A stretch of DNA of 64,000 nt, taken from positions 1 to 64,000 of the IMG/VR virus record IMGVR_UViG_3300035670_000022, one strand, 5' to 3'. Origin of the DNA: a virus. The notes under the pieces were generated by a model, which searched no databases, was not told the DNA's origin, and worked only from the letters and a program-made list of their open reading frames with translations. Shown piece by piece: positions 38,382 through 54,792 of this stretch. The first letter of the stretch is position 1; each line of letters begins with the position of its first letter. A program made the position numbers and the translations under genes.

Positions 38382-41300
38382 ATGAACTGCCCTACAGGAT
38401 TTCTTTGGTATCAGAAAGAAGAGAATCGGTTCCTTCTTAACGAGTCACAAACGCCAGATGGCTGGGCGCCTCTACCAGTCTCTGTTCATCCTAAGGACTT
38501 GAGTAAGGAAGATTTAGAGGCGTTAGCGGAGTCTATCAGCCGAGGAAGTCAATATACTATCCACGTTGACAAGAATTGTCCGTACGCTTCAGACGCTAAG
38601 GACAATAGAGGCAACTCTAGGTTTAGACCTTTTCGCTCTATTGAGCGGGCTTTAATAGAAGCGGCGCGGCGATCGTTCGTCGTCGGTAACACTGCTTCTG
38701 GTGGAGCGGATATAACCCAACGAATTTCTATTCATGTAGCTGCTGGAGAATATGAAGTTGAGAATGGCTACGGCGGACAAATATTTCAATCTGACTTTGA
38801 TCAACGCCAGGACGCAGCGAAGCTGTTAATTGCTAACCGCGACTATCTGGTAGAAGTTGCTTACACTTCCTATCAATCTGACCCGTTGTTTGCCCAAGTG
38901 TTGACAGAGGCTGAAGTGCTAGCCTGCAAGCGGGATTTAAGCTTCTTTGTTGATGCAGTCGCTAAAGACATTGCCGACACTGGCAACTTCTTTATGGTTC
39001 AGGCGGCTCGGACTCTTTTTACCACGCCGGGTGCGTTCATTCCTGCTTACTCTTCTTCTCCTAAACGGCAGAGTACTTTGGAGGCTATTCGGGTATTAAG
39101 AGAAGTATCTCGAGTTGTTATTAAGAATCAAGCGGAAGAGAGTAAAGGTGGGATTAGACTGCGGCATATCACTCCTGACCCGACTTCACTTACGAATCCG
39201 TATCAGGAGATTCAACTAGTCTCAGACAGTCTTTATGACATTCTGATTGATACTTTAAGTGGCTCAGTTGACCCGTTTGCTCTAGAGGTTAATCCAGGAA
39301 GCGATACAGCGAACTTCCCTAATGAGGGAGAGCCTGACGACAGAACACTGCGAGCATACAACAGCGTATACACCCCAGGAATTATTCTTCCTAGAGGTGT
39401 CTCTATTATTGGCTCTGACTTACGTAAAGTCATCATCCGTCCCAAGTATGTGCCTGCGGCCCATGATACGACAGTTGGTCGATCAGCAATCTTTAGGATG
39501 ACTGGCGGGAACTTCATATCTGGGCTCACTATCATGGATAAGAGTGGGCTATCGGAGTCGCATCACAAACTTTCCTGTTTTGAGTTCTGCACTAACGGTG
39601 ATCTTGTTTCCTATTACAACAAGGTTGCTTTAGCCTTCCAAGATAGCTCTAAGTTTAACCGTCTTCAAGATGCTGCTGGCTTGATCAAGGCAAACATCAG
39701 TTGGATTCAGAAGAAGACGTTTAAGTCTTTTGTGGCAGAGACTAGTAATCAGAAGAAATATCTAAACATATTTGAGGCTGAGATACCTGGGTTGTTAGCA
39801 GCTATTGCTATTAACTGCACCAAATTCGGTAACGAAGCAGTCTTAGACTTTGCTGACCGCTTTAAGAGATATCATATCGATCCTATTGAAGATCAGGCTG
39901 CTCTAGACAATGCTTTGGTCTTTTACTCTTCTCTGTTTTCACAGTTAGAGTTATATCTGCGTAAGGCTGTGACTAATGAGGCTAATCCGGCAGAGGGTGG
40001 TTATATCGACGAACGCATTAAAACCGACGCGGCTAGTCCGTCTAACCCATGTCAGGATGTGCAGTCTATTATTAACACCTTTATAGATATCATCCTTAAT
40101 ACTCTTAGAGGGGCAACTATTCCCAGAGTTGGTTTCTTTCCTTGGACGGTATTTGATGTTGGTCCTACGGCTTCTGAAAACCAAATTGTAGGTGCTGCTG
40201 GTCAGAATCCGATTGAAGGCGCTTCTCCTTATGTCTACTCAGTCACCCTCCGCAGCCGCTGGGGGATGTGCGGCATCGATGGGGATGGGAGTATTGTCAC
40301 CGGGCTTAAGTCTTTTCTTGCGGCTCAGTTTACTGTTATCTCGATGCAGTCTGATACTCGGTGTTTCACTGCGCTAGACGTTTTAGGAGAGGTAGAAAAA
40401 CGTTATATAGGGACTCGCGCTGCGGATGCGTCTGACTATCGCCACTTTGGCTATAGAGCGACCAATGGAGCCTACGCGCAGTTGGTTAGTTGCTTCTGTA
40501 TTGCTCCTGCAATCCATTTTTGGACAGCTAGTGGTGGTGAGATGTCCATTACAAATAGCACCAGTAACTTTGGGGATGTAGCTCTCTATGCTGAAGGGTT
40601 CTTAAAGAACGGAGAGGGCGGGGGAGCCTATCCTCAAGACCAGGGACACCGTCTTCTGGGTATTAAGAAGCCTAAGGCAGTTAGCCTCATTGAACGGATT
40701 TTTGTCCTGGGTTATCTAAAAGCAGGGGGCACTACGGTAGACCCTTCTGATAGCGCCAAGGGGACGATTACTATTACAGGCGAGGCTAATACCCACGGTT
40801 ATAACATTACTAACCCTGAGTACCCAACTCGTATTTACGCTCGGGTCTCTGGGGGTGTAGTAGCCGCAGAAGTTATTTCTCACAGTCTTAATTCTAATAA
40901 TGAGACAGTCTTTGAAGTAAAGTATATCGATAACTACGCGCTGAACTGGGTGGCTTCTGAGTACGACGTTAATTACCGTCGTGGATTAATTGGGTCTGCC
41001 ATCTATTTTGAGCGCTATGTCGATGTCCGCAGCTATGAAGATACTCTTTATCATTTAATTATTGAAAAGGCACAATCTTCTACAGAGAAGCGTCGGGAGC
41101 CTGTTTCAAAATACATTTTGCGGCTTTCTAGCGTAGCTAGTGCTCTTGACCAGCCTTTTCGCTCTATGTGGGATCCTACTAGAGGGCGGGCTCCGCTGTA
41201 TTTTATTAATAGTGCGACTGAGACTACTGCGATTCAGCCCTTCGAAGGCAAGACGAACTACGAGTTAACACCTTTATCTGCTTACTCTAATATTGAGCGG

Positions 41301-44300
41301 CAAATGGAGTCTATTGAAGATGCATATGTTACTGCTTCCTTAGACACAATGCTTGATCGGGATCCTCGCCACGGCGTTGTTGTTGATCGAGCCGACAACG
41401 TGACCCGCATTGCTGTCGAGCACATACTTGAACTTTTAGGGCTGTCTACCTACATAAGCTCTCTTAGTTTATCGACCAATAACGTTATTTCTTTTACTCC
41501 TTCTGATCGAAAACTGGTTGATTTTAACAAACCTAGTTTGATTCGCTGCTCCGGACATACTTGGGAGTATGTTGGCTATTACAACTATGACACCGCCATT
41601 CCTTCTGTACAGCCTAAGCAGTTAGGCGAAGGGTTATCTGCGGTTAGACGTGAACAGATGCGTTTCAGCAAGCTACAGACTCAAGTCGATGGAGGGCGTA
41701 TTTACGCCACTGGGATGGACGAAGAGGGAAATCTGTATGCAGGCAGCCGTGTTACAGACTTGAAAAATGGCAATCAGCGTCGGGTAAACTTAGGCACCAC
41801 CCCAGAGGTGGATGAGATGTTTCCCACAGACTTTGACATCTTACGCGTGCGTCTTCTCTACGCAGGTGACGTTTTTGTCTCTGGGGATCTCACTGTAGGA
41901 GGAACAATTTATTGCACTAACCTGATCGCGTCAGACCTGGTACGGGGCTATACCGGAGAGTTTGACATTCTCAAAACGCGAGGGGATTGCATCACCTTAA
42001 ACTCAGATGCTCTAGAAGCCAACAACGACTGGCTCTTCCGACTGTGCCGCTCTTTACTTCAAACACAGAATATTACAATTACCTTCCCGCCTAATAACGG
42101 TTTACCCGGACAGACTTTAATCACTGACGGTACCGGAGTCCTTTCCTGGGGAGACGTATCAAATGTGCCAGAAGGATATATTGCCTTTCCAGGTATTAGC
42201 CCACTAATTCCCATCAACGTGCTGCCTAGGGAGACTCCTGGCTGGAATAACGGAGCAATGAATTTAACGTCTAATGGCTGTTTAGAGATAAGTGTTAATG
42301 CAGCTGAAGGACCTTACAGTCTGGGGCCTGTTGCAATTGAAAATGGAGATAGCCTGTGGGTAAATTGGGCTCCGGGCGTATCCTGCGCTGGGGCTGCTCA
42401 TAATACTCCTATTGTGGGAGAGATTATTAGTGACGGCAATCATAAAGTAGACGGCTTGTTGTTGTTGGATAAACTCCCTTATACATTCACGTTCAACAAC
42501 CTAGGGGATCAAGTTAGAAGCAGTGTTGTTACTTCTAATATTGTCACTCTTGGCGGTATAAACGCACACACTCAACTCTGGGCAACAGGGGCTAACACTT
42601 CTAGCCTTGAGGTCAAAATTAACGGAGGCGACTGGACACCCTTGCCTAACGATGGCGAGACGGTTTTAGATATTCTGTTAATCGCCTCTGGGTCCACGTT
42701 GCAATTACGCATGACTAACAGCAGTAGTTATGCCACGGCTACTAATGTTGATATCGCCGTAGGCGATCGGGCGCTTAACCAATATGTCCCTGCTTCTTGG
42801 ACGTCGACTACGCAACAGGAGCTTATTAACGGACCTGCTATTACTAAACAGCCTGTATCTCAAACTGTTGTAGAAGGACAAAGTGCTACTTTTACCATCG
42901 AAGCTACTGGAACAGACATCACGTATCAGTGGCGTCGAGATAATCAGAATATAGCTGGAGCCACTGCTGACTCGTATACGGTATTCGATGCTACTTTGGA
43001 TTCAGCAGCTGCTTATACATGTACGGTTAGCAATGTTGCGGGAAGTGTTACCTCCAGCTCAGCAACGCTAACAGTAACTCTACGCGCTCCTGTAATAACT
43101 TCTCATCCACAAAGTGCCTTTGTGGTAGAGGGAGACCCAGCCAGCTTTAACGTCGCTGCTACCGGAACTAATCTTTCCTATCAGTGGCAGAAGAACTCAG
43201 TCAATATTTCTGGTGCTACAGCGACTTCTTACTCTATTACTGAGACTACACGACTCGATCAAGCTTCTTACCGTGTCATTGTCAGTAACTCTGGAGGCGC
43301 CGTCACCAGTTTAGGGGCTAACTTGACTGTTGAGCCAGCTTTACCTGACCCTCCGGTTATTGTTCAGCACCCGCAGTCTTTGAGTCTTGCAGAAGGAACT
43401 AATGCGACCTTTAGCGTCGTTGCTACTGGCTCCAACTTAAACTATCAGTGGCAGAAAAACAGCAGTAATATTTCAGGAGCTACTAACTCTACCCTTGATA
43501 TTTATAGTATTGATACCGGTGATGCTGCTAATTATCGTGTTGTCGTAAGTAATACAGGGGGTTCTGTCACTAGTAATCAAGCCTCGCTGTCTGTTACTCT
43601 AGCGGCTCCTGTCATTACTCAGCAGCCTCAAAGTATATCTATTAATGAAGGACAGAGCGCTACGTTTACTGTTGTCGCGGTCGGGGCGAGTCTAACCTAT
43701 CAGTGGCAAAGAAACAACACTCCCATTTCTGGAGCGACTTCGTCGTCGTATACCATTTCAAATGCAACCACGTCTTCTGCCGCGAACTATCGAGTTGTGG
43801 TAACCAACGCAGGTGGCGCTGTCACCAGTAATAATGCTACCTTGACGGTTACTATTCCAGCTCCTGTCATTACACAACATCCAGTGTCTCAAAACGTTGA
43901 GCTGGGTAATTCTGCTACTTTCTCTGTAACAGCTACAGGAGCCGCGCTTACGTATCAATGGCAAAAAGACGGAGCGAATATTAGTGGGGCGACATCTTCT
44001 TCGTACAGTATTCCTAGCACTACTAATGGTAATAGCGGATCTTACCGAGTACGGGTTCAAAACTCTGGAGGAAGTGTCTTTAGTAACTATGCAGAGCTGA
44101 GTGTTTATGAGGCGTATATTCCTTTACGAATAGTTACTCAGCCACAGGATGTGTCTGGTGACCCTAATACTCTTGTCACACTTTCTGTTGTAGTAGCCGA
44201 TGGAGATCAACCCTACTCTTATAAATGGTACAAAGTCGGCAGCTCTACTGTATTAGGTACTCAGCCATCGTTTAGCGTCTCTATTACCCCGCAAAACGTG

Positions 44301-45272
44301 GGTGAGTACCAATGCCGAATCGTGGACTATTATCAACAAGGCAACGTACTCACTCGAAGAGCTGTCGTTTCAGTAACTCCTAGGTTAAAACCTGAAGTTC
44401 TTTATAGTGGACCCTCTGTCATTTATAGTGATCTAAATACTGTCAATACTATTGGGTTTGCTGTCTACGATGAGAGCCCAGGAGGCAGTGGTCCGTATAC
44501 TGCACAATTAAGGCGAGTAACAACAACTTTACCTTATCCTATTATTGCGACTTCTGTAGATACTGGGCTTCTTACGTTTACTACGCAAAGTGCCCACTAC
44601 GGACAAACTTTTCAAATTGTTGTTACTAGCGCGTGGGGCGATAGCAATGTCTTCATACCTACTTTTCGCTTAGAGCCCCCACTACCGACTATCACTCAGC
44701 AACCTGCTGATATTGAGGCGTATTATGGAGGTACAGCGACGTTTAACGTAGTCGCTACTGGATCTAATCTTAGCTATCAATGGCTTAAAGGCACAACTCC
44801 TATTGCTGGTAAAACCAGTCCTACTTTATCTCTTTCTAATCTGGAGGCAGACGACGCGGCCTTCTATCAAGTCAGAGTAAGTAATCCATATGGTGAAGTA
44901 GTCAGTCGAAGCGCAAAGCTTACTCTTGTTTACGGACCTCCTATTGTTCTTACCCTAATTACGAATAAAAGTTTGCAGATAGGAAGTGGAGCTCTCATTC
45001 AGGTCAGCATCTCAGCTCTAGGACAGCAACCATTAAGCTACCAGTGGTATGAAAATTTGAATACTACCACTGCTAACGATACGTCTAAGTATGTAGCGAG
45101 TACGCAAATTTATGCTCCGACTTTAGTCCCTAGTGCTACCAGTACCGGAGGTCCTCGTTCTCCTGTTTACTACTTAGTTGACGTTCCCTCTGACCGTGCC
45201 TACAGGTGCAAAGTCTCCAATAGTTTAGGGACTGCATGGAGTGATCCCATCTTCCTCGACGTATATACTTAG
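38382..45272 (+). CDS. Giant tail/virion protein: beta-helix-type core, two phycobiliprotein-like helical inserts, C-terminal Ig-like array
   Basis: PFRSIERALIEAA and GIILPRGVSIIGSDLRK cyanophage fibre motifs; at least 7 ITxQPxS..TYQW..Y.V.VSN Ig repeats. Confidence 0.85.
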   Translation: MNCPTGFLWYQKEENRFLLNESQTPDGWAPLPVSVHPKDLSKEDLEALAESISRGSQYTIHVDKNCPYASDAKDNRGNSRFRPFRSIERALIEAARRSFVVGNTASGGADITQRISIHVAAGEYEVENGYGGQIFQSDFDQRQDAAKLLIANRDYLVEVAYTSYQSDPLFAQVLTEAEVLACKRDLSFFVDAVAKDIADTGNFFMVQAARTLFTTPGAFIPAYSSSPKRQSTLEAIRVLREVSRVVIKNQAEESKGGIRLRHITPDPTSLTNPYQEIQLVSDSLYDILIDTLSGSVDPFALEVNPGSDTANFPNEGEPDDRTLRAYNSVYTPGIILPRGVSIIGSDLRKVIIRPKYVPAAHDTTVGRSAIFRMTGGNFISGLTIMDKSGLSESHHKLSCFEFCTNGDLVSYYNKVALAFQDSSKFNRLQDAAGLIKANISWIQKKTFKSFVAETSNQKKYLNIFEAEIPGLLAAIAINCTKFGNEAVLDFADRFKRYHIDPIEDQAALDNALVFYSSLFSQLELYLRKAVTNEANPAEGGYIDERIKTDAASPSNPCQDVQSIINTFIDIILNTLRGATIPRVGFFPWTVFDVGPTASENQIVGAAGQNPIEGASPYVYSVTLRSRWGMCGIDGDGSIVTGLKSFLAAQFTVISMQSDTRCFTALDVLGEVEKRYIGTRAADASDYRHFGYRATNGAYAQLVSCFCIAPAIHFWTASGGEMSITNSTSNFGDVALYAEGFLKNGEGGGAYPQDQGHRLLGIKKPKAVSLIERIFVLGYLKAGGTTVDPSDSAKGTITITGEANTHGYNITNPEYPTRIYARVSGGVVAAEVISHSLNSNNETVFEVKYIDNYALNWVASEYDVNYRRGLIGSAIYFERYVDVRSYEDTLYHLIIEKAQSSTEKRREPVSKYILRLSSVASALDQPFRSMWDPTRGRAPLYFINSATETTAIQPFEGKTNYELTPLSAYSNIERQMESIEDAYVTASLDTMLDRDPRHGVVVDRADNVTRIAVEHILELLGLSTYISSLSLSTNNVISFTPSDRKLVDFNKPSLIRCSGHTWEYVGYYNYDTAIPSVQPKQLGEGLSAVRREQMRFSKLQTQVDGGRIYATGMDEEGNLYAGSRVTDLKNGNQRRVNLGTTPEVDEMFPTDFDILRVRLLYAGDVFVSGDLTVGGTIYCTNLIASDLVRGYTGEFDILKTRGDCITLNSDALEANNDWLFRLCRSLLQTQNITITFPPNNGLPGQTLITDGTGVLSWGDVSNVPEGYIAFPGISPLIPINVLPRETPGWNNGAMNLTSNGCLEISVNAAEGPYSLGPVAIENGDSLWVNWAPGVSCAGAAHNTPIVGEIISDGNHKVDGLLLLDKLPYTFTFNNLGDQVRSSVVTSNIVTLGGINAHTQLWATGANTSSLEVKINGGDWTPLPNDGETVLDILLIASGSTLQLRMTNSSSYATATNVDIAVGDRALNQYVPASWTSTTQQELINGPAITKQPVSQTVVEGQSATFTIEATGTDITYQWRRDNQNIAGATADSYTVFDATLDSAAAYTCTVSNVAGSVTSSSATLTVTLRAPVITSHPQSAFVVEGDPASFNVAATGTNLSYQWQKNSVNISGATATSYSITETTRLDQASYRVIVSNSGGAVTSLGANLTVEPALPDPPVIVQHPQSLSLAEGTNATFSVVATGSNLNYQWQKNSSNISGATNSTLDIYSIDTGDAANYRVVVSNTGGSVTSNQASLSVTLAAPVITQQPQSISINEGQSATFTVVAVGASLTYQWQRNNTPISGATSSSYTISNATTSSAANYRVVVTNAGGAVTSNNATLTVTIPAPVITQHPVSQNVELGNSATFSVTATGAALTYQWQKDGANISGATSSSYSIPSTTNGNSGSYRVRVQNSGGSVFSNYAELSVYEAYIPLRIVTQPQDVSGDPNTLVTLSVVVADGDQPYSYKWYKVGSSTVLGTQPSFSVSITPQNVGEYQCRIVDYYQQGNVLTRRAVVSVTPRLKPEVLYSGPSVIYSDLNTVNTIGFAVYDESPGGSGPYTAQLRRVTTTLPYPIIATSVDTGLLTFTTQSAHYGQTFQIVVTSAWGDSNVFIPTFRLEPPLPTITQQPADIEAYYGGTATFNVVATGSNLSYQWLKGTTPIAGKTSPTLSLSNLEADDAAFYQVRVSNPYGEVVSRSAKLTLVYGPPIVLTLITNKSLQIGSGALIQVSISALGQQPLSYQWYENLNTTTANDTSKYVASTQIYAPTLVPSATSTGGPRSPVYYLVDVPSDRAYRCKVSNSLGTAWSDPIFLDVYT
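42830..44930 (+). repeat. Tandem Ig-like (I-set) domain repeats of about 85 aa
   Basis: Repeated PVITQxPQS.....G..ATF.V.A.G..L.YQWQK. Confidence 0.85.
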
Positions 45273-45805: not shown

Positions 45806-47086
45806 ATGAGTCAAGTAACTGAAGTCACTCAAGTTGAGAAGGAACTTACTCTAGACCAATTTCAGAAGCTAGACAGCTATGCTTCTGAAATAAATGGTTT
45901 ATTGCGCTCTACGCTTCTGTCAGCGGTGCGCATAGGTGAAATTCTCAAAGATGTCCGGGATAACATCTTACCGTATGGTGAGTGGATTCCTTGGGTAGAA
46001 TCCCAATTTGAGAGTTCTATCACCTGTAACACGGCTACCAACTTTATCAATCTATACAACTTACACAGTAAGTATGCAGACAAGTATGCTCGGGGATTAG
46101 AGGCTCTCTCGTTGAGTTCTCTTTATATTATTTCTCGGCACAACGTAGATGAAGAAATACAACAGGCTGTGCTTGAGATAGCTGAAGAGCAAGAGGAAGC
46201 CCCCCCATCTCGGGAAGAAGTTCGTAATCTTGTGCAGTCTTACCGCCAAATTAAGATGTCTGAGGCGGGACTGTCTGATGAGATTCAAACGGCGCTGTTA
46301 GAGTCACCTGTAGTAGAAGACCCTAAAGAGGTCAATGCTCTAAAGCGATTGTCAAAGGCAAGACAACTAGAGGTAGCTGAACGGTTAGCAGTTGGTGTAG
46401 CATCAACCACAAAAGAGGCCGTGAAGCAGATCTACCAAGAAAAGAAAGCAGCATCTGATGTAAGTGAGTCTACAAAAAAAGAGCAGTCTGTCGAAGTCGT
46501 CTATGAAAAGATGAAACGACAGACCTTTCGGCAACTTTCAGACGTTCCATCTGAGTCCGTTGACCTAGCTTTCGTAGAGGCACCTTTAAAACTAGCTTAT
46601 ACACAAAATGATCTGCACTCTCTTTGTATAGAGCTGGAAAGAGTCCTTGTCCCTAGCGCCTTTGCTGTCATTACAGTGGGGCATAAAGCAGCTATGTTTG
46701 CTGGTCCCCTGATAGACCCACTAAAACCGGTTCATCTGCTTTGCCTTAGACGCCAGCCGGGGCAGACCCGTTCTATTGTCGGGTTAAATATAATGTCTGC
46801 CTCTGTCTTCGCTCTTTTTTGCTACAAGGCTCCCTATTCTCCTCCTGGAAAGATGTTAGCCGACTTACATACATACGAAGTGACCACTAACAGCGAGGCG
46901 ATCGCTGGATTAGACGAAGTCTATTCTGGATTGGAGAAGTGTATCGAGCGGATCTTTACTCCGCTAATTGCCCCGGGCGGCACGTTATTACACGCTTTAG
47001 TTAGTCCCATGCACTTCAATCTGTCTTCTAGTGTTCACGAAACAGCTGAAAAATTAAGTGTGGGCACTGTCTATACAGTGCGCTAA
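45806..47086 (+). CDS. DUF3102-like domain fused to a degenerate DNA methyltransferase-like domain
   Basis: IGEILKDVR..LPYGEWIPWVESQF..TATNFI; LSDVPSESVDLAFVEAPL at the DPPY position. Confidence 0.6.
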   Translation: MSQVTEVTQVEKELTLDQFQKLDSYASEINGLLRSTLLSAVRIGEILKDVRDNILPYGEWIPWVESQFESSITCNTATNFINLYNLHSKYADKYARGLEALSLSSLYIISRHNVDEEIQQAVLEIAEEQEEAPPSREEVRNLVQSYRQIKMSEAGLSDEIQTALLESPVVEDPKEVNALKRLSKARQLEVAERLAVGVASTTKEAVKQIYQEKKAASDVSESTKKEQSVEVVYEKMKRQTFRQLSDVPSESVDLAFVEAPLKLAYTQNDLHSLCIELERVLVPSAFAVITVGHKAAMFAGPLIDPLKPVHLLCLRRQPGQTRSIVGLNIMSASVFALFCYKAPYSPPGKMLADLHTYEVTTNSEAIAGLDEVYSGLEKCIERIFTPLIAPGGTLLHALVSPMHFNLSSSVHETAEKLSVGTVYTVR

Positions 47087-47206
47087 ACAGCTTACTCTTA
47101 CTGGCTGCAGTCGTTGCTTGTCTAATTTCTGAACCGTTTACAATTTGAAGCAGTGGATTCCCCTCCACTGCTTTATTATTTTTTTGTGTCGTTTGGTATT
47201 TCAACT

Positions 47207-48154
47207 ATGAGCAGCTACTACATCACCTCTAAGCGCGATGGATTTGGACAGTATCTTAATGAGATAGGTATGTATCCGACTCTAACTAAAGAGCAGGAGC
47301 AAGAGTACGGCAAGAAAATTCAAAAGATGATGCTTTTTAATAAGCTGCTAGAGTCAATACCTCTAGATAGCGCAGTGCAGCTAAAGGCTCAAGCCTGTGC
47401 GTGCTCTGTGCAGGAGTTTAATCTTGTTTATCGACATGGTGCTATCTCTCGAGACCGGATGTTAAAACACAACCTAAAGCTGGTTGTGCATATTGCTCGT
47501 CGGTATAACAACAGGGGTGTTGATTTGGAGGATCTTGTGCAAGAAGGTAGCGTTGGGCTGATGCGGGCGGTAGAGAAGTTTAACCCAGACCTAGGGTTTA
47601 AGTTTAGTACCTACGCTGGGTGGTGGATAAAACAATCAATTATTCGAGCTATTGCTAATACCTGTCGATCTATTCGTCTTCCTGTTCATATACATGATCT
47701 TCTAAATAAGATTCGTCGAGTTGAGCGGGATTTTTTTCAACAAACAGGAAGGACGCCTAAGTTGTCAGAAGTTGCTGACATCATTGGTGTACCTGCGGGT
47801 AAGATCAGTCGAGTCCAGCAACATTCTAAAAATGTGTGGAGTTTAGATATAGAGAGTTATGACTCAGATGACTCACCTTCGATTGAGGAGTCGTTTGTTA
47901 ATACGGTTGCTACTCAACAAGCTGAATATCTATTTGATATCCAGCATCTTACTGAGTCGATGTTACAGGAGTTGGACGAGTTGGAGCTGGCAGTAATGGT
48001 TCGTCGTTACGGATTAAACACCGGAATTAATCTGTCTTACCAGTCCATAGCTGATGAATTGGGTTTAAATACCCAAACAGTCAGAAAGATCAGTCTTGGC
48101 GCCTTTGAAAAGTTAAAGAACCACGTGGTTCAGTCTGGTATCTCCATGTTCTAA
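47207..48154 (+). CDS. RpoD/SigA-like sigma-70 factor
   Basis: YLNEIG.YP.LT, NLKLVVHIARRY, DLVQEGSVGLMRAVEKF, KFSTYAGWWIKQSI, IRLPVH and region-4 HTH. Confidence 0.95.
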   Translation: MSSYYITSKRDGFGQYLNEIGMYPTLTKEQEQEYGKKIQKMMLFNKLLESIPLDSAVQLKAQACACSVQEFNLVYRHGAISRDRMLKHNLKLVVHIARRYNNRGVDLEDLVQEGSVGLMRAVEKFNPDLGFKFSTYAGWWIKQSIIRAIANTCRSIRLPVHIHDLLNKIRRVERDFFQQTGRTPKLSEVADIIGVPAGKISRVQQHSKNVWSLDIESYDSDDSPSIEESFVNTVATQQAEYLFDIQHLTESMLQELDELELAVMVRRYGLNTGINLSYQSIADELGLNTQTVRKISLGAFEKLKNHVVQSGISMF

Positions 48155-52264: not shown

Positions 52265-52353
52265 TACTCATTTGCTTCAGTTCTTAATCTAGCTTAGTCG
52301 AGCTATTGGATAAGCTGAGTTTAGGTTCCCTGCTGTTGTTAAATGGTACTTTT

Positions 52354-54792
52354 ATGACTGACTACACTTCATACAAGATAGAGATTATTGAAGGAATCAA
52401 TGATGATCCGGTTCCTGCCAATTTTAACAATAACGGTCGGGGACCTAATGGCTCATACTTTATCCAGAAGTACAACGCATTCCTAGATGCAGCTAGTGCC
52501 ACAGTTGATGCGGATGAAACTGTTAAAACCTCAGCGACTGACACCACAGCTGGCTTTTTACAGGACAAGTTAGTTGCTGGCGATAATATTACGATTACAC
52601 TGACTGCTCCGGGAGAGAACGAGTCTTTAACTATTGCTGGGGCTGAACCCCATGCTATTAAGAATGGATTAAGTGAAGCCGGCTTTTTTACGGTGGATGG
52701 GTTGTTTGAAGTGACTATCGCCGGAGCAACCTATGCACGCTGGGATTTAGGTAATCCAGTAGGATCTACCGGCTGTATAGCTATTGGTGAAGATGCTCTC
52801 TTAACACCAGATGTTGCTGCCTATAACATTGCTATTGGTACCGAGTGCTTAAGATTAACGACTGAGGGAACAGATAATGTAGCCCTTGGGAGTTATGCTT
52901 TATCGGCTAATACTACAGGCTGGCAGAATACTGCCGTAGGATCCTACTCGCTTTTACTCAACACCTCTGGTAGTGATAATGTGGCGATCGGTTGCTTTAG
53001 CCTATGGAATAATACTGTGGGCGTAAAGAATATCGCTTTGGGCGACTATGCTCTGCGGGACGCAGTAAGTGCCAGCGCTAACGTGTGTGTCGGACACTCT
53101 ACAGGATTAAAAACAACTGGTGAGACAAACACTTATGTTGGGTCTGAGTGTGCGATGGCGAATACATCAGGAGGAGCCAACACTGCTCTTGGTTATTATG
53201 CTTTAGCTAACAGCGAAACAGGCAATTGGAATGTAGCTGTTGGTAGGGACGCAGCGTTTGGAACGGCAGGCGTAAGTGTCGGCGGGCTTGTTGCTGTCGG
53301 TGCGCAAGCTCTTAAAGTTACAGCTGCTTCCGACAACACTGCAGTGGGGTATCAAGCACTAACAGATACCACTACTGGGGTTAATAATGTGGCTGTTGGG
53401 CACACCGCTGCTTCAACTTTGACCACAGGCAGCAATGTTATATGTATCGGACAAAACGCTCAGCCCTCAGCGACTACGGTTTCTAACGAGATAACGTTAG
53501 GTAACGCGTCTATCGCTTCTTTAAGAGTGCCTGGACTTGGCTTTGAATTAGGGAATTGCTCTGCTGCTACAGATGGGCAGATTTTAACTTACGATGACGT
53601 GTCTGGTAATTGGATTCCAGGGACAGCAGCGAGCGGTGGAGGAACAGCGGTGCCTCCTGGTTATCTGCAAGTTTACGCTGCAGGTGATGTTATAGGTCTG
53701 ACTAGTAGTAACGAGTGGTACGGTGGAATAGTTGAGCTTGGCTATAACGCATCATTCGAAAGTAACGTATTTTTTGGGCACAATTCTCTAAAAGAAGCGT
53801 ATAACAACATAGATGGTCCGCTTTTCACGTCTGTTGTTAATAGTGTGTCTATTGGACGTGATTGCAATACTCAACCTCTAGCTGATGGATACATCGCTAA
53901 TAGCGTGTCTATTGGTTATTTAGCTGGTACTAGCTACAGTATGCTTAACGGTTGTGTATTTGTAGGTAACACTGTTGGACCGCAGCAAACGGCTGAAGAA
54001 AACGGAATCTGGCTTCAGGGTTCTGTAGTAATCGGTGCAGGCAGTGCTACTAATGCGACTGCGTTGGATGGTTCAGTTATTATTGGCAAATCCGCTGCAA
54101 ACTATTTAACAGACGGTTTAAGTTGGAATACTGTCGCAATAGGCTCTTCTGCTCTTCAAAATACAACAAGTTCAGCAGATGCAGTAGCTATTGGGTCTGC
54201 AGCCGGACAGTATACAACCTCAGGTACCCAAAATGTTTTTGTTGGACGCTGGGCTGGACAAAGATGCACCACAGGTTCTTACAACGTCTATGTAGGTCCA
54301 GAGTCGGGACTTTATGCTTTAGGCACAACTACGAATACAACAGGAAGCAACAATATCTGTATAGGTAGACGAGCCTATTTATCGGCTGCTGATGTCAGTA
54401 ACGAGATAACTTTGGGTAACACATCTATTACTTCTTTACGCTGCGCTGTTACTTCTATTACGTCTCTCTCTGATGTTAGAGATAAAAAGGATATACAAAC
54501 GCTGCCTGTAGGGCTTGACTTTGTTAATACTTTGAATCCCGTCCAATTTACCTGGAACACTCGTGACGGGGCTAAAGTCGGACAGCAGGCAGCTGGGTTT
54601 ATTGCTCAAGATTTACAAGAGGCTCAATCAGGCAATGAGTATCTCAATCTTGTTCTTGATAACAACCCTGATCGGTTAGAAGCCACACCCGGTAACCTGA
54701 TTCCTGTCTTAGTCAAAGCAATACAAGAGCTGGCTGAAAAGGTCGAGCAGCAGTCTTTAGAGATCGAAGCGCTAAAAGCACAAGTTGCTTAG
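52354..54792 (+). CDS. Trimeric tail fibre with NTAVG/NVAIG repeats and peptidase S74 chaperone
   Basis: YadA-like 14-residue repeats; SDVRDKKDI..GLDFVNTLNPV..GFIAQD..LVKAIQEL. Confidence 0.9.
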   Translation: MTDYTSYKIEIIEGINDDPVPANFNNNGRGPNGSYFIQKYNAFLDAASATVDADETVKTSATDTTAGFLQDKLVAGDNITITLTAPGENESLTIAGAEPHAIKNGLSEAGFFTVDGLFEVTIAGATYARWDLGNPVGSTGCIAIGEDALLTPDVAAYNIAIGTECLRLTTEGTDNVALGSYALSANTTGWQNTAVGSYSLLLNTSGSDNVAIGCFSLWNNTVGVKNIALGDYALRDAVSASANVCVGHSTGLKTTGETNTYVGSECAMANTSGGANTALGYYALANSETGNWNVAVGRDAAFGTAGVSVGGLVAVGAQALKVTAASDNTAVGYQALTDTTTGVNNVAVGHTAASTLTTGSNVICIGQNAQPSATTVSNEITLGNASIASLRVPGLGFELGNCSAATDGQILTYDDVSGNWIPGTAASGGGTAVPPGYLQVYAAGDVIGLTSSNEWYGGIVELGYNASFESNVFFGHNSLKEAYNNIDGPLFTSVVNSVSIGRDCNTQPLADGYIANSVSIGYLAGTSYSMLNGCVFVGNTVGPQQTAEENGIWLQGSVVIGAGSATNATALDGSVIIGKSAANYLTDGLSWNTVAIGSSALQNTTSSADAVAIGSAAGQYTTSGTQNVFVGRWAGQRCTTGSYNVYVGPESGLYALGTTTNTTGSNNICIGRRAYLSAADVSNEITLGNTSITSLRCAVTSITSLSDVRDKKDIQTLPVGLDFVNTLNPVQFTWNTRDGAKVGQQAAGFIAQDLQEAQSGNEYLNLVLDNNPDRLEATPGNLIPVLVKAIQELAEKVEQQSLEIEALKAQVA

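Follow-up and report, generated by a model that had tools for sequence, protein, structure and literature searches.

In a stretch of 64,000 nucleotides of viral DNA (the window; positions 1 to 64,000 of IMG/VR record IMGVR_UViG_3300035670_000022) we analysed a phycobiliprotein-like module that lies within the gene of a tail-fibre-like protein. This gene, P0001, spans positions 38382–45272 on the + strand and encodes 2296 amino acids; it was recognized from the list of open reading frames (ORFs), its translation, PHROG matches and tblastn. The first ~1150 residues correspond to PHROG tail-fibre families 529, 4527 and 5342, and the product is predicted to be a tail-fibre-type virion protein. Copy 1 of the module (residues 138–298; 38793–39275, + strand) is a six-helix unit with an intact Cys-x-Arg-Asp (CxRD) motif, Cys182-Lys183-Arg184-Asp185 (38925–38936, + strand), in which the TGC of Cys182 at 38925–38927 is followed by AAG CGG GAT. 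An earlier note, made from the sequence alone, had read residues 142–294 as phycobiliprotein-like; the residues it quoted are present in P0001, residue 142 starting at 38805, and so are the cysteine codon and the motif that it named. A second, degenerate copy (residues 425–580; 39654–40121, + strand), in which C, R and D are replaced by F, A and E, had been overlooked. We conclude that residues 138–298 are very probably a phycobiliprotein-type globin domain that is homologous to the clade of phycobiliproteins and bilin-binding globins, is inserted in the N-terminal part of a tail fibre, and belongs to a large repeat family of cyanophages.

The established role of phycobiliproteins is that of antenna subunits in the cytoplasm of cyanobacteria and algae, and their wider globin relatives (BBAGs, photoglobins) have been recognized only recently. 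AlphaFold2 was run on A1, an alignment of 29 module copies with copy 1 of P0001 first, and yielded a six-helix model of copy 1 with a predicted local distance difference test score (pLDDT) of 92.1 and a predicted template modelling score (pTM) of 0.88. All 49 matches listed by Foldseek against the PDB were phycobiliproteins or proteins engineered from them, with template modelling (TM) scores up to 0.73; the best were phycoerythrin beta chains (E 3.6e-4, TM 0.72, about 164 columns). VIA-align, which is independent of Foldseek and was run against 48,161 representative chains, also returned phycoerythrin beta (Z 17.0, root-mean-square deviation 2.2 Å, 145 residues), followed by far-red allophycocyanin (Z 15.6), the bilin-binding domain of ApcE (Z 14.6), globin-coupled sensor globins (Z ~12) and photocobilins (Z 11.7). 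The phycobiliprotein-like domain claimed in the earlier note was borne out by these structures and by profile matches.

Residues 1–156 of the model match phycobiliprotein residues 31–184 in VIA-align, and the module is therefore a globin core without the N-terminal X-Y hairpin, which phycobiliproteins use for alpha-beta pairing. This bears on the notion that the module mimics the phycobilisome and docks onto its parts, or onto their lyases, in the host during infection. Homology with phycobiliproteins and a host range confined to cyanobacteria would fit such a role. However, the module lacks the hairpin by which phycobiliproteins assemble, and it resides in a virion fibre with immunoglobulin-like (Ig-like) adhesion domains, which is extracellular, whereas phycobilisomes are cytoplasmic. 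We consider mimicry very unlikely.

At the sequence level, searches with single sequences did not connect the module to phycobiliproteins. A Pfam scan of P0001 gave no PF00502 match at E≤1 or E≤10, copy 1 staying below the gathering score of 22.2 bits, and phmmer of copy 1 alone against the PDB listed no phycobiliprotein even at E≤10. PF00502 was absent across the whole 155.9-kb virus record, and the control genome was detected. The gathering score was passed by two multi-copy relatives, P0027 (40 bits, E 4.9e-10) and P0025 (32.3 bits, E 1.1e-7), and weak PF00502 matches occurred in 4 of 29 single modules. The profile of A1 found 40 matches at E≤10 among all PDB sequences, 37 of them phycobiliprotein chains (best: CpcA 8iml_A, E 0.0014). 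In this alignment module columns 5–59 lay on phycobiliprotein residues ~39–103, and Cys, Arg and Asp fell on the chromophore residues Cys84, Arg86 and Asp87; the triad was in register in hidden Markov model (HMM) alignments to CpcA, PEC beta and R-phycocyanin chains.

We also compared profiles with profiles. A DNA pattern derived from the alignment of the A1 profile with PDB chains located cpcA loci in cyanobacterial genomes, PF00502 then found all phycobiliprotein genes in three of these, and 26 distinct phycobiliproteins were obtained. Using 1162 module copies against this set, hhalign gave a probability of 94.5% (P 8.2e-8) over 107 columns, with module 4–115 on phycobiliprotein 35–146. In global mode the last helix of the module, S-L-Y-D-I-L-I-D-T-L-S, was placed on the C-terminal Y-F-D-Y...S helix. 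The HMM of the full family scored 27.5 bits on a CpcA and 13 bits on ApcB. Both the HMM alignments and hhalign set Cys182 on Cys84, in agreement with the earlier proposal that it occupies the bilin-attachment position.

The parallel with allophycocyanin beta that the earlier note had drawn stood in part. The four alignment blocks of the note were recovered by hhalign, both locally and globally, but the pairwise score was at chance: in Smith-Waterman alignment z was 0.9 and 51 of 300 shuffles reached the score, and BLASTP aligned 10 residues around CxRD (E 0.051). This pairing by itself is not above chance. With CpcA as partner z was 5.1 and no shuffle out of 300 reached the score; the best sequence partner is phycocyanin alpha, and the best fold partner is phycoerythrin beta. 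A fortuitous likeness among helical sequences rich in Ala, Leu and Arg, with no ancestry shared with phycobiliproteins, would account for the chance-level score and for the failure of copy 1 alone to match them in Pfam or among PDB sequences. Yet the searches by profile, by profile-profile comparison and by fold all lead to phycobiliproteins with the triad in register, and from these searches we conclude that the resemblance is homology; coincidence is highly improbable. Of the fold and family searches that the earlier note had suggested, AlphaFold and Foldseek gave a phycobiliprotein-like answer, whereas copy 1 itself fell below the PF00502 cut-off.

An exhaustive phmmer search with P0001 residues 138–300 against 1.84 billion representative proteins returned 299 matches at E≤0.001. 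The 150 matches listed were all large proteins (468–6382 amino acids), each matched over as many as 28 stretches, and none had the length of a phycobiliprotein. A family profile built from them found 1495 copies in these 150 proteins, up to 34 in a single giant protein; it matched copy 1 of P0001 (138–298) with E 1.4e-56 and copy 2 (425–580) with E 9.1e-14. According to column statistics over 1453 copies, the residues at P0001 positions 182 (Cys), 184 (Arg), 185 (Asp) and 196 (Asp) are conserved in 97%, 95%, 99% and 98%, respectively, and the Asn at 152 and 202 in 81% each. Cys, Arg and Asp are intact together in 1368/1453 copies (~94%), which are otherwise about 20–30% identical. The CxRD cysteine therefore characterizes a large repeat family and is no peculiarity of the P0001 insert. 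Of the family copies that extend far enough, 25% have a second cysteine, which forms part of an N-P-C-Q motif immediately ahead of the last helix.

Single modules were searched by tblastn against 50,697 phage isolate records and matched 51 and 141 records, exclusively cyanophages; examples are p091 and the 'short tail fiber' of S-PM2 and gp7 of P-HM2. These matches, the family profile and PHROGs corroborate the earlier statement that structural proteins of other cyanophages have similar helical repeats, and they assign the module to an as yet unnamed, predicted fibre repeat family of cyanophages (parts of PHROGs 4527, 5342 and 701), the PHROG matches having E values of 1.6e-9, 4.9e-8 and 3.1e-5. 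A search of viral contigs for related loci with a single module gave no confirmed relative, and megablast of the first 2 kb of the P0001 gene against phage isolates gave no match. Two observations were made in passing. In the S-PM2 RefSeq entry (NC_006820.1, 166000–170500), fourteen tRNA features lie inside the 3792-codon 'short tail fiber protein' coding sequence that carries phycobiliprotein-like modules, and share one locus tag with it, apparently a mistake in coordinates or annotation. The module-rich, 2743-amino-acid P0027 (ENA ERZ27279932) adjoins a 2693-amino-acid protein with DUF4815; its stored Pfam table carried a 'faint' PF00502 flag, which the direct scan raised to the 40 bits given above.

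Copy 1 of P0001 retains C182, R184, D185, D196, N152 and N202, and copy 2 only the two Asn. In their C-terminal part the copies are 33% identical (BLASTP, E 9e-9). C-x-R-D is also found in copy 1 of the orthologues P0062, P0068 and P0106, whose modules are 37%, 35% and 27% identical to that of P0001. Among the five orthologues Arg184, Asp185, Asp196, Asn152 and Asn202 are invariant and Cys182 is not. Cys and Tyr are distributed reciprocally between P0001 and its closest orthologue, P0006: copy 1 of P0001 has Cys182 and Tyr274 (39201–39203, + strand), the latter at the position of the second family cysteine, which is Cys in orthologues, and copy 1 of P0006 has Tyr182 and Cys274. The N-P-C-Q cysteine is kept in copy 2 of P0001 as Cys557 (40050–40052, + strand). 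In all five orthologues the C/R/D triad of copy 2 is gone and the copy itself is retained. Copy 2 is predicted to be a six-helix unit (pLDDT 75–89 within a longer model), despite the lost triad, and the triad is therefore not needed for the fold.

The module can be delimited by means of a paralogous fibre gene, P0002 (48155–51871, - strand; 1238 amino acids), which ends in a tail-collar/fibre C-terminus according to Pfam and PHROG. BLASTP aligned P0002 with P0001 residues 50–139 (38529–38798, + strand), 328–416 between the two modules (39363–39629, + strand) and 609–1136 (40206–41789, + strand), and with nothing at 140–327; P0001 therefore has two extra segments, 140–327 and 417–608. Residues 609–1136 form a conserved tail-fibre core that is also common to cyanophage fibres (PHROG, tblastn). 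The module profile gave zero matches in P0002 even at E≤10, and no ORF of the phage other than P0001 matched it. As the earlier note had stated, the paralogue is without the insert, and the alignment marks the module as a discrete insert in P0001, where P0002 holds a different stretch of 80 residues and not a void. The insertion topology is drawn from this pairwise alignment, since the model of residues 40–640 (601 residues) was poor, with pLDDT 60, pTM 0.36 and beta parts below 50.

The C-terminal part of P0001 (residues about 1480–2290; 42819–45251, + strand) is an array of Ig-like (Ig_3/I-set) and PKD domains. Ig_3 was matched by Pfam with E 8.7e-58 over 7 stretches, in addition to I-set and PKD; the last ~800 residues thus comprise at least 7 tandem Ig-like domains and PKD-like domains, a type of array known from Hoc-like decoration proteins. 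Three further genes, all on the + strand, were noted nearby. A 333-amino-acid ORF between the two fibre genes (47153–48154) matches PHROG 351, 'RNA polymerase sigma factor', with E 7e-64, which is unexpected amid structural genes. The fibre pair is flanked by additional virion genes, one for a 426-amino-acid protein of PHROG 1733, function not known (45806–47086), and one for an 828-amino-acid tail-spike/virion structural protein (52306–54792; PHROGs 23837 and 4636).

The virus record from which the window was taken is 155.9 kb long and estimated to be 88% complete. The fibre core of P0001 is ~40% identical to fibres of the S-TIM5 group and was found by tblastn in 451 isolate records, cyanophages without exception; the first 640 residues matched 209 isolate records, again all cyanophages. 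The polymerase-exonuclease of the phage is ~24% identical to that of the group of Microcystis phage Ma-LMM01. The phage is most probably a cyanophage, and these identities place it in a lineage without isolates that appears related to the Ma-LMM01 and S-TIM5 groups. No module was found in S-TIM5 and Ma-LMM01, and the lake Synechococcus phage DSL-LC03 has four; the module is an optional insert.

What does the module hold? In phycobiliproteins, the cysteine forms a thioether to the bilin, and the arginine and aspartate contact the pigment. The family keeps exactly these three bilin-holding residues, and a linear tetrapyrrole is therefore the most likely thing for the module to hold. An unpaired cysteine kept at 97% in an extracellular protein likewise suggests a chemical role, and the confinement of single-module matches to cyanophages, among 50,697 phage records, also favours bilin binding. 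We hypothesize that the tetrapyrrole would be drawn from the pigment pool of the infected cyanobacterium and attached to Cys182 either autocatalytically, as in the BBAG-1/3 globins, or by a host lyase, as the phage itself lacks one. CXRD is a recognized bilin motif, and the CXRD globins BBAG-1/3 attach bilins without a lyase (PMC10151467). Pigment would in that case sit on the fibre and could render the fibre's conformation, and hence adsorption, light-responsive, or could simply lock the fold; copy 2, having lost the site, would be an empty structural copy. On balance, pigment binding by the module family is plausible at somewhat below even chances, and for copy 1 of P0001 we would propose it with a little more reserve still.

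Several findings weigh against a pigmented fibre. P0006, the closest orthologue (49% module identity), which is encoded on a syntenic contig where the RecA-like and polA genes of the P0001 phage recur, has Y-K-R-D, with Tyr at position 182. A further tyrosine that is conserved in 98% of the 1453 family copies is Leu212 in P0001, and Leu or Ile throughout its sub-lineage. The near-invariant Asp196, Asn152 and Asn202 are not found in phycobiliproteins (family columns, hhalign), and the propionate-binding arginines that phycobiliproteins have upstream of the cysteine are not conserved in the module family; both features would also suit a different ligand, or a network that is purely structural. 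The 155.9-kb record (88% complete) contains no cpeT, heme oxygenase (PF01126), bilin reductase (PF05996), psbA or nblA. No report of pigmented cyanophage particles was found in the literature searched. In addition, three sequencing runs that contain this DNA belong to one study and carry the label 'subsurface metagenome', which is hard to reconcile with a cyanobacterial host, even though all relatives of the fibre and replication genes come from cyanophages. None of the runs listed for the stretch is recorded as RNA, and runs with a small share of it (oyster, soil) are uninformative as to habitat.

Many of these points would suit an empty structural module, i.e. a phycobiliprotein-derived globin fold used without pigment as a compact and rigid building block or decoration of the fibre, in which C-x-R-D, Asp196, Asn152 and Asn202 are kept as a network for packing on neighbouring domains or for extracellular stability. 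The copies, which stand in tandem or nested and number as many as 34 in one giant protein, resemble a building block; the module has invariants that phycobiliproteins lack; the sub-lineage keeps Arg, Asp, Asp196 and both Asn with a variable Cys (Tyr in P0006); copy 2 persists in all five orthologues without the triad; and neither bilin or lyase genes in the phage nor pigmented particles in the literature searched came to light. Such a role leaves unexplained, however, why an unpaired cysteine is kept at 97% in an extracellular protein together with the exact bilin triad of phycobiliproteins, the more so as the degenerate copies show the triad to be dispensable for the fold. We hold the structural explanation to be a tentative but serious possibility.

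A pocket for a ligand other than a bilin, such as a metal (for instance calcium, via the Asp/Asn cluster), heme or a molecule of the host surface, must also be weighed. The conserved Asp185, Asp191, Asp196, Asn152 and Asn202 constitute an acidic and amide-rich set, sensor globins are the next-best fold class (Z about 12), and the nearest cluster in the ESM Atlas pointed weakly, at a sub-threshold score of 0.88, to non-heme globins of the RsbR type (RsbRD_N made up 20% of one cluster). However, no column of the 1495-copy family alignment is dominated by His, as would be expected of a proximal heme ligand, and phycobiliproteins rank clearly above heme globins (Z 17 vs 12). Cys and Arg are atypical for calcium, and a receptor site is unlikely to recur 30-fold with its residues invariant. 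We regard another ligand as rather unlikely.

If a bilin is bound, the pigment might serve light perception. P-HM2 and S-PM2 adsorb only in the light, and P-SSM2 and P-SSP7 also in the dark (PMC6628666). We found 4 modules in P-HM2 and 9 in S-PM2, both with cpeT, and 0 modules and no cpeT in either P-SSM2 or P-SSP7; yet P-SSM2 has a heme oxygenase and a bilin reductase. The match between module presence and light-dependent adsorption is a lead only, as it comprises four phages (n=4) and is confounded by their relatedness, which counts against making much of it. That cyanophage fibres and baseplates carry covalent bilins on phycobiliprotein-derived modules, as virion photoreceptors that permit adsorption only in light, is an idea we put forward as speculative and unlikely. 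Were it correct, the light-dependent adsorption of S-PM2 and P-HM2 would be explained, and cpeT and the bilin-synthesis genes of phages would gain a structural target; the single intact site of the P0001 phage may then be loaded from the host pigment pool.

The module family shows that host domains can be captured by viruses along an unusual path, namely into their structural proteins. With the triad kept in about 94% of >1400 copies and an occurrence in cyanophages only among isolates, the family offers the unexplained cpeT gene of phages a possible target, and pigment on virus particles has become testable. P0001 is a useful boundary case, with one intact and one decayed copy, no pigment genes, and a natural Cys-to-Tyr variant in its nearest orthologue. 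The fold and the motif were already known. Their setting, in virion fibres, in tandem arrays and in a cyanophage lineage that lacks pigment genes, is undescribed as far as the searchable literature goes, where we found no account of phycobiliprotein homologues in phage particles.

The module can be compared with four known systems. Globin-coupled sensor globins, RsbR-type globins and photoglobins/photocobilins share its fold class (Z 11–12) and are, as signalling domains, likewise fused to other modules. They differ in their structural scores, which are lower than those of phycobiliproteins, and the module family has neither a proximal His nor a B12 domain. The bilin biosynthesis-associated globins BBAG-1 and BBAG-3, as portrayed in their published description (Rockwell, Martin and Lagarias 2023, PMC10151467), are phycobiliprotein paralogues outside the antenna with CXRD and lyase-free attachment, and thus a precedent for a phage without cpeT. 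In contrast to the module, which is part of a fibre, they are small proteins of the cytoplasm, and their genes cluster with those for heme oxygenase and bilin reductase, neither of which was found in the 155.9-kb record of this phage.

The phycobiliproteins proper (PF00502: CpcA/B, CpeA/B, ApcA/B; bilin domain of ApcE) share with the module the globin helices A, B, E, F', G and H and the Cys-x-Arg-Asp on helix E, in register with Cys84/Arg86/Asp87; copy 2, with F-x-A-E, fails the latter comparison. Unlike the module, which is an insert without the X-Y hairpin in a virion protein of 2296 amino acids, they are free subunits of 160–180 amino acids. Asp196, Asn152 and Asn202 are invariants peculiar to the module, which scores below the PF00502 cut-off, and bilin binding by it is a prediction from sequence. 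The closest parallel in kind is with the giant fibre and baseplate proteins of T4-like cyanophages (S-PM2, P-HM2; PHROGs 4527, 5342 and 701), which are the same kind of protein, contain the same module family and show the same C-x-R-D...D...G-G-N signature. They carry 4 to 34 consensus copies, whereas P0001 has one intact and one degenerate copy, with Leu in place of the invariant Tyr.

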